DNA of 27,426 nt from a virus (Duplodnaviria; Heunggongvirae; Uroviricota; Caudoviricetes), in the IMG/VR virus record IMGVR_UViG_2660238683_000003, positions 1-27,426 of that record, one strand, 5' to 3'. The stretch's first letter is position 1. Each line of letters opens with the position of its first letter. The translations under genes and the position numbers were made by a program. The notes under the pieces were generated by a model. That model saw only the letters and a list, made by a program, of their open reading frames with translations, was not told where the DNA came from and made no database searches. This document shows positions 21,687 to 21,840 of the stretch, piece after piece.

Positions 21687-21840
21687 TGAAACCTCGTAGA
21701 ATCTGGTGTGTTAACCGATTCTACGAGTAGTCATTTGTTCATTGAGTAGGAATATTGTTGTCTGGGGGGTAATCAGTGTAGGTGGAATGAGGGATATGAT
21801 ATGGTTATCACATAATCAGGTTGTTTTGAGTAAAACAATA

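Follow-up and report, generated by a model that had tools for sequence, protein, structure and literature searches.

A conserved palindrome at the LPsit late promoter of P1-type phages spans the -10 box and the pmgC Shine-Dalgarno sequence and may insulate pmgC from upstream transcripts

Results

The pmgC locus and its palindrome

The stretch of DNA that we analysed (27,426 nt, hereafter the window) is 98.6% identical to phage P1 (AF234172 / NC_005856), which identifies it as a P1-type phage. Around the palindrome studied here it matches P1 base for base, and window coordinates equal P1 coordinates minus 24890, an offset that was checked by alignment. On the minus strand, the genes simA, simB and simC are followed by pmgC, tub and pmgB (Table 1). 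The earlier note on this DNA had placed the palindrome in front of the first tail-operon gene, and this was borne out, as pmgC heads the LPsit operon. Based on family matches, pmgC belongs to phrog_1851 and tub to phrog_1842. The start codon of pmgC is confirmed by the N-terminus of its product, since MTPRQLLE is common to P1, JK004 and D6. The gene tub, the gene pmgB and the other genes downstream possess Shine-Dalgarno (SD) sequences of their own and do not overlap pmgC. A CRISPRi screen scored pmgC as essential, and the table of that study also lists pmgC as essential from earlier work (PMC10695390), with the caveat that CRISPRi knockdowns can be polar. A literature search on the name pmgC returned unrelated acronyms only, and the P1 RNA-seq papers report neither pmgC nor 5′ ends.

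The palindrome is an inverted repeat of CTCGTAGAATC (21693-21703) and GATTCTACGAG (21717-21727) as read on the displayed strand. Its two arms of 11 bp are perfectly complementary and are separated by 13 nt, exactly as the earlier note had reported. In the order of the mRNA (minus strand), the region reads AAATGACTA-CTCGTAGAATC-GGTTAACACACCA-GATTCTACGAG-GTTTCA-ATG, and three of the four bases of the GAGG at 21695-21692 fall within the 3′ arm. Dinucleotide-preserving shuffles of the window yielded an expectation of 0.19 perfect 11-bp inverted repeats with a loop of at most 20 nt, and three were observed. At least one such repeat occurred in 13% of the shuffled windows, a frequency that speaks for coincidence. 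The exact placement of this repeat on both the -10 box and the SD, together with its conservation, argues against a chance origin, which is unlikely.

The two other perfect 11-bp inverted repeats of the window are located at 24851-24876 and 25230-25258 and have a 4-nt loop each. The former lies just past the stop codon of ant1 (24841) and has a terminator-like look, and the latter lies within the kilA promoter region. A weaker repeat that had been pointed out upstream of the palindrome, TGATA-N4-TATCA, is indeed present (21797-21810) but at chance level, with 46 such repeats in the window versus about 28 in shuffles. Nor is it conserved: the L044 class of relatives, which has the same segment, carries a broken version of it (TATGA).

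Table 1. Positions of the features at the LPsit-pmgC junction
Feature	Position in the window	Strand	Details
pmgC	21120-21686	-	CDS, 188 aa; ATG at 21686-21684; first gene of the LPsit tail operon (pmgC-tub-pmgB-sit and onward)
pmgC Shine-Dalgarno, GAGGU	21691-21695	-	Read from the sequence; 5 nt 5′ of the ATG
3′ arm of the hairpin, GATTCTACGAG	21693-21703	-	About +9 to +19 of the predicted late mRNA; holds the GAG of the SD
Loop, GGTTAACACACCA	21704-21716	-	GGU/ACC lengthen the stem, with one bulged A; predicted late start within
5′ arm of the hairpin, CTCGTAGAATC	21717-21727	-	Spacer CTCG, -10 hexamer and one further base
LPsit -10 hexamer, TAGAAT	21718-21723 (P1 46608-46613)	-	Annotated minus_10_signal; inside the 5′ arm
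LPsit -22 box, AAATGACTA	21728-21736 (P1 46618-46626)	-	Presumed Lpa recognition element; annotated in P1 (AF234172) and P7
Mosaic junction	21737-21739		P1-type homology starts at about 21738, immediately upstream of the -22 box
Intrinsic terminator of the sim operon	21840-21863	-	P1 class only; absent in the P7, L015 and JK004 classes

The LPsit promoter and the predicted transcription start

The GenBank records of P1 and P7 place the late promoter LPsit at the palindrome, and the P1 record words it as "late promoter LPsit", without "predicted". LPsit itself is already known and annotated. Eleven late promoters of P1 depend on Lpa and share a conserved Lpa site of 9 bp (PMC10695390, citing Lobocka 2004); besides LPsit these are LPmat, LPpro, LPlyz, LPdar, LPs, LP23, LP26, LPpmgL, LPhot and LPpac. 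All 11 annotated promoters share a 9-bp box, 4 bp and a 6-bp hexamer, with a longer spacer in LPhot. The -22 box of LPsit fits the AAGTNACTT-type box found at all of them, and it is preceded by AC (AAC-AAATGACTA at 21728-21739, minus strand), as is usual at P1 late promoters. The box is followed by CTCG (4 bp) and then by TAGAAT, which conforms to the TAnnnT hexamer and its spacing, with no -35 element. Both the box and the hexamer are identical in LP26. When the window was scanned for AARTKACTW-N4-TANNNT, three matches were found, relative to 0.07 expected; these were LPdar, LPs and LPsit, all of them on the minus strand and all annotated as late promoters.

Between LPdar (7050) and LPs (13428), the window is 728 bp shorter than P1 c1.100. 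This interval corresponds to the cin / invertible C-segment / tail-fibre S region, in which the phage of the window differs from reference P1.

P1 late promoters are characterised by a need for Lpa and for host SspA and by a start a few nucleotides past the hexamer. Transcription by the RNA polymerase of E. coli starts approximately 7 nt (range about 5-9) past the -10 hexamer. Judging from the promoter annotation and this geometry, late transcription of pmgC should start in the loop, at about position 21711 (range about 21709-21713). Because the -10 hexamer is contained in the 5′ arm, this arm lies upstream of any start made from LPsit, and a late mRNA with such a start cannot form the hairpin. 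Since the predicted late mRNA is devoid of the 5′ arm, the palindrome can only discriminate against transcripts that come from further upstream. The earlier note had held that a start mapping downstream of the palindrome, which would keep it out of the mRNA, would count against its proposals; the predicted start lies inside the palindrome, which bears out half of that scenario.

The palindrome also creates a mirror TAGAAT on the plus strand (21697-21702), which was considered as an antisense or divergent promoter. This candidate was rejected: it presents no -22 box (the sequence upstream of it is CATTGAAAC), and a scan found no sigma-70 -35 element. Further upstream, the P1 record lists a "predicted sigma-70 promoter P1pmgC" (at approximately 21864-21892 of the window), just upstream of the sim terminator. 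This promoter is unlikely to serve pmgC because the terminator at 21840-21863 intervenes.

RNA folding and opening of the ribosome-binding site

We compared the folding of the predicted late RNA with that of RNA containing both arms. The native late RNA (21711 to 21650) has a minimum free energy of -7.4 kcal/mol (z -0.69), which is no better than its shuffles, and the predicted late leader is short (25 nt), CA-rich and unstructured. RNA with both arms (21730-21687) forms a hairpin of -19.7 kcal/mol (z -7.1), and none of 200 shuffles was equally stable. The folding analysis that the earlier note had called for therefore returned a stable hairpin that contains the only SD of pmgC. Its statement that the SD is buried in the stem was correct in that the GAG of this SD is paired; the burial exists solely in RNA that carries both arms.

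We then expressed the accessibility of the ribosome-binding site (RBS) as the free energy needed to make the region from -16 to +3 around the start codon single-stranded. Opening the RBS of pmgC costs 6.9 kcal/mol with the native leader versus 18.65 kcal/mol when 60 additional upstream nucleotides are included, a difference of +11.8 kcal/mol. The same difference ranges from -0.5 to +4.4 kcal/mol at the other ten late promoters of P1. LPsit is thus the only late promoter of P1 whose -10 box lies in a long stem pairing with the SD of the first gene (+11.8 versus at most 4.4 kcal/mol). When leaders of 25 nt and 85 nt were compared for the starts of 87 long ORFs in P1, the penalty of pmgC ranked first (mean 1.8, standard deviation 2.8). 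The penalty was kept in all 15 representative loci that we folded, which cover the main variants of the two clades described below: opening costs were 5.6-7.9 kcal/mol for native leaders and 11-23 kcal/mol for read-through RNA.

Could the hairpin operate on the late mRNA itself, either stabilising its 5′ end or acting as a switch that a factor or a rise in temperature opens? Its high stability and the presence of the SD within it would suit such a role, and the mom gene of phage Mu possesses a factor-opened SD hairpin of a similar kind. Such a role, however, needs a start upstream of 21727, in which case LPsit would not be the promoter, and yet LPsit fits the late-promoter consensus with both elements equal to those of LP26. 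Moreover, only 8-10 nt separate the end of the upstream ORF from the -22 box in the L015 and JK004 classes, too short a distance for another promoter. The hairpin does not match an Rfam family either: a covariance-model search gave no match overlapping 21687-21730 with E up to 1, and the sub-threshold matches all fell on the sim terminator. We consider a switch or stabiliser on the late mRNA very unlikely. The proposal of an RNA switch gating the tail operon, made in the earlier note, stands to the extent that RNA with both arms hides the SD; the predicted late mRNA is without the 5′ arm, so there is no gate there.

A strong stem at the end of upstream transcription units, many of which lack a terminator of their own, might also halt incoming transcripts ahead of pmgC, as an intrinsic terminator or an attenuator. 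The stem is, however, not followed by a U-tract (GUUUCAAUG in P1 and GUUGGCAUG in JK004), and the sequence past it is not conserved as U-rich. Our terminator scan made no call at the palindrome, though it detected the sim terminator. Termination at this hairpin is extremely unlikely.

A motif at another late promoter was noted during this analysis. In the LPdar / lydA leader (window 7020-7068, minus strand), tacCTCCTgacaacgtAGGAGGgaacttGTG is found directly past the -10 box of LPdar (TACCAT, 7050-7055). This anti-SD straddles the predicted start and can form a weak pairing of 6-7 bp with the SD of lydA (holin). The read-through penalty of lydA (+4.4 kcal/mol) is inside the genome-wide null range, and this leader is at most a weak parallel to LPsit.

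Conservation and covariation of the arms

Across approximately 85 loci of the P1 group (IMG/VR and GTDB genomes), both arms are invariant, and variation is found in the loop, in the last two bases of the -22 box and in the spacer between SD and ATG. We extended the search to metagenome and viral contigs with a scan that was anchored only on the ATGAC of the box and on the start of pmgC, leaving arms and loop free. This yielded 129 loci, every one of which presents 11 Watson-Crick pairs out of 11; these loci contain two arm haplotypes and at least nine loop haplotypes. The P1 clade accounts for 124 of the 129 loci and has an invariant 5′ arm, and the remaining five belong to a JK004-type sister clade.

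Within the P1 clade (115 loci), none of the 22 arm sites is segregating, relative to 64 of 189 third-codon positions of pmgC and 8 of 21 other non-coding sites. The invariance of the arms is unexpected at the rate of third positions (P = 1.1e-4), and the difference from the other non-coding sites is significant as well (Fisher, 0.0014). The -10 hexamer and the SD account in their own right for part of this conservation; when only the 13 arm sites that belong to neither element are considered, the corresponding probability is P = 0.005. In the loop, 5 of the 13 positions vary within the P1 clade.

The sister clade comprises Cronobacter phage JK004, Salmonella plasmids and the loci L096-L099, and its PmgC is 75% identical to that of P1. 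Its sequence is (A/T)(C/T)ATGACAA-CTCGTAAAATC-GG(C/T)TGAAGATCC-GATTTTACGAG-GTTGGC-ATG. Relative to P1, a G of the -10 hexamer has become A and the base paired with it has changed from C to T, which amounts to one compensatory change from G:C to A:T (A:U). The spacer between the arms is 12 nt long versus 13 nt in P1, the loop sequence is different and the stem runs over 13 bp without a mismatch. This clade also has an outer helix, in which CAUG of the -22 box pairs with CAUG at the start codon, so that the AUG is paired as well. Between the clades, the extensions of the stem near the loop change in sequence yet stay complementary, including C-to-U changes that are kept as G-U pairs. In a formal covariation count, 100% of the cells are paired, with ten invariant pairs and one compensatory pair; this covariation represents a single evolutionary event. 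Purifying selection acts on the pairing of the arms.

These patterns bear on the possibility that the -10 hexamer and the leader are complementary by coincidence and that this complementarity serves no function in itself. Besides the shuffle statistics given above, the fact that only one covariation event is seen is compatible with coincidence. However, arm sites outside the -10 box and the SD are also invariant while neighbouring sites vary, and the sole arm change that we observed is compensated. In addition, pairing persists in a clade with 75% protein identity and a different loop, and pmgC is the top outlier among the 87 P1 genes. Coincidence is quite improbable on these grounds, and the LPsit-pmgC palindrome is a real, conserved feature.

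Conservation is also expected if the palindrome is a DNA operator for a dimeric regulator of the tail operon, either a co-activator or a repressor that occupies LPsit from -10 to +20. A perfect 11-bp dyad over the -10 box and the start site is in a typical operator position, its arms are invariant, and a symmetric change from G:C to A:T in both half-sites would also be expected of a co-evolving dimer site. Several observations point the other way. No other copy of the half-site with at most one mismatch exists in P1, and copies with two mismatches are below expectation (9 versus 24). The spacing of the half-sites differs between the clades (13 versus 12 bp), and the inner bases change but remain complementary, some of them paired only as G-U in the sense RNA. 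The consensus of the C1 operator is asymmetric and 17 bp long; the palindrome bears no resemblance to it, and no C1 operator is annotated here in the P1 record. There is also no candidate protein known. A search for the same palindrome at other late operons, as had been suggested, found none in P1, nor any similar dyad or comparable structure at the other ten late promoters. The earlier note's dimeric protein site is disfavoured by the uniqueness of the half-site and by the change of spacing, and an operator is unlikely overall.

More distant relatives of PmgC, found in D6-like phages, Citrobacter, Vibrio and a Desulfovibrio MAG, have another gene order and no LPsit-type promoter and contributed no further covariation. 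Nearly all plasmid matches obtained with blastn had an identity of 95% or more, and they did not inform the covariation. In D6-type phages, bplB is immediately followed by pmgC within an operon, and neither the promoter nor the palindrome is present. The gene order 21-pmgG-bplB-pmgC-tub, with no promoter before pmgC, is seen in phage D6 itself (L005, positions 1-1800) and in L011, L012, L100 and L101. This suggests that the late operon was originally continuous and was interrupted in the P1 lineage by insertion of the immI-repL-sim block, with LPsit and its hairpin either arising at this junction or marking it.

A contig of Chimaeribacter californicus (L010, positions 1390-1515) encodes a pmgC homologue that is 58% identical, with a terminator and then a leader 5′ of the gene. 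In this leader, AUGGG...CCCAU pairs over the SD and the AUG, and its 5′ arm abuts a -10-like hexamer, TACGAT. This single sequence may be an independent instance of the logic of the LPsit hairpin with an unrelated sequence.

Upstream modules at the mosaic junction

The homology among P1-type elements begins immediately upstream of the -22 box (Table 1), and the genes on the other side of this junction vary. At least seven different modules are found upstream of LPsit (L007, L015, L019, L021, L044, L053 and L004 among the loci), and their last gene is always co-oriented with pmgC. Besides sim and a DUF5384/lipoprotein module, they include genes for a 158-aa signal-peptide protein, for a nuclease-like DUF559 protein and for an SH3 protein, as well as others. 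The junction has the look of a hotspot where lysogenic-conversion genes insert.

The classes differ in the distance between the last upstream gene and the -22 box and in the presence of a terminator. In the P1 class, which includes the window, simC ends 159 nt before the box, and a strong intrinsic terminator lies in between (21840-21863). This terminator is symmetric, looks bidirectional and carries no annotation in the P1 record. In the P7 class the last gene encodes a DUF5384 membrane protein and ends 30 nt before the box, without a terminator. A 158-aa signal-peptide protein is encoded at 8-10 nt from the box in the L015 class and in JK004, and a DUF559-type nuclease-like protein at 80 nt in L019, again without a terminator. 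Finally, the L007 class presents an SH3-domain protein at about 104 nt, followed by a weak terminator-like motif. Overall, 38 of 80 relatives possess a co-oriented accessory ORF that ends 8-30 nt before the -22 box without any terminator-like motif. Because the ORF abuts the box with no terminator in these 38 relatives, transcripts of the accessory genes would be expected to cross the palindrome into pmgC.

The 158-aa ORF of the JK004 and L015 classes was also considered as the late gene bplB, an identity that would have made the read-through late. The matches had E values of 0.9 and 7.3, and this identity was ruled out: the ORF encodes a signal-peptide accessory protein.

Discussion

Our results suggest that the palindrome is probably a translational insulator embedded in a promoter, such that only transcripts from LPsit make PmgC. 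This reading builds on the anatomy of the locus, the differential folding of the two RNAs, the outlier status of pmgC, the conservation of the arms and the upstream gene context. At the DNA level, the upstream arm holds the spacer and -10 box of the Lpa-dependent promoter LPsit, and at the RNA level the downstream arm contributes most of the SD of pmgC. Late RNA started at LPsit by RNA polymerase and Lpa would begin in the loop, at about 21711, and would carry the 3′ arm only, leaving the SD exposed and pmgC translated. RNA from the accessory genes (sim in P1, other exported proteins in relatives) would contain both arms and would fold into a hairpin of about -20 kcal/mol. If such read-through RNA is made in lysogens or in early infection, the hairpin would occlude the SD, and in the JK004 clade the AUG too, so that no PmgC would be produced from lysogenic or early transcripts. 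Silencing of pmgC by itself would not silence the operon without polarity, because the downstream genes have their own SDs and do not overlap pmgC. If pmgC RNA stays untranslated, Rho-dependent polarity might carry the block further, to tub, pmgB, sit and later genes, and the silencing may be of physiological benefit.

Several observations stand against the insulator, among them the single covariation event and the share of arm conservation owed to the -10 hexamer and the SD. In addition, ten of the eleven late promoters of P1 do without a comparable hairpin, and in P1 and the window a strong terminator lies between simC and LPsit. This sim terminator limits read-through in P1 and the window but need not abolish it, and read-through may be small there.

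The design proposed here has precedents. In phage T4, the genes e (lysozyme), soc, 49 and I-TevI have a late promoter within the DNA for the 5′ strand of a hairpin that sequesters the RBS; the 3′ strand holds the SD and/or the AUG, and late transcripts, which are without the 5′ strand, are translated well (PMC3014915). For gene e, long transcripts from upstream promoters are translated approximately 100-fold less, and the design is experimentally established (PMC3014915), whereas the LPsit hairpin is known here from sequence and folding. The geometry predicted for LPsit is the same, with a late promoter in the 5′ strand and the SD in the 3′ strand. The promoters differ, however: that of P1 combines a sigma-70 -10 box with the -22 box of Lpa, and that of T4 is a gp55 promoter (TATAAATA). 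P1 is also unrelated to T4 and temperate, and its source of read-through is likely to be lysogenic accessory genes at a mosaic junction rather than early lytic transcripts.

A second parallel comes from transposons. Davis, Simons and Kleckner are said to have described in 1985 that transcripts entering IS10/Tn10 (and IS50) from outside include the complement of the transposase start region, fold and are not translated. Transcripts from the promoter of IS10 itself reportedly start downstream of the complementary sequence. The logic is the same as that of the LPsit hairpin, but the system belongs to a transposon, protects a single gene and shares no homology with LPsit. The sequestration of the translation signals of IS10 is also described, with Davis, Simons and Kleckner 1985 as the source, in PMC13181058. 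As for P1, neither its record nor that of P7 annotates the palindrome, and the literature open to searching, a scope outside which the primary P1 papers lie, does not describe it.

A broader role can be envisaged, although it is doubtful. The hairpin could be an insulator of general use, with the position just before LPsit as a safe landing pad. Accessory cassettes expressed in the lysogen (morons) could then be exchanged without bringing terminators, since no transcript leaving them would be translated at pmgC, and Rho-dependent polarity would curtail such transcripts ahead of the remainder of the approximately 11-kb tail operon. If this reading is true, a single RNA structure would be tied to genome mosaicism at the junction.

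The arrangement also has a practical side. LPsit has been used as a late-expression cassette (bioRxiv 10.1101/2022.07.24.501295). For users of such cassettes, and for the insertion of payloads upstream of pmgC, it is relevant that the 5′ arm and the -10 box are the same DNA.

P1 is a model temperate phage and represents a widespread family of plasmid-prophages that bear resistance and accessory genes. In such phages, the LPsit element would be a simple answer to how the tail operon is kept silent in the lysogen beside accessory cassettes that are expressed. It would also explain why the junction tolerates at least seven different cassettes, whether they lack a terminator or bear one. A design for which T4 has been the main documented case would then also be present in a phage that is temperate and plasmid-borne and uses sigma-70/Lpa promoters.
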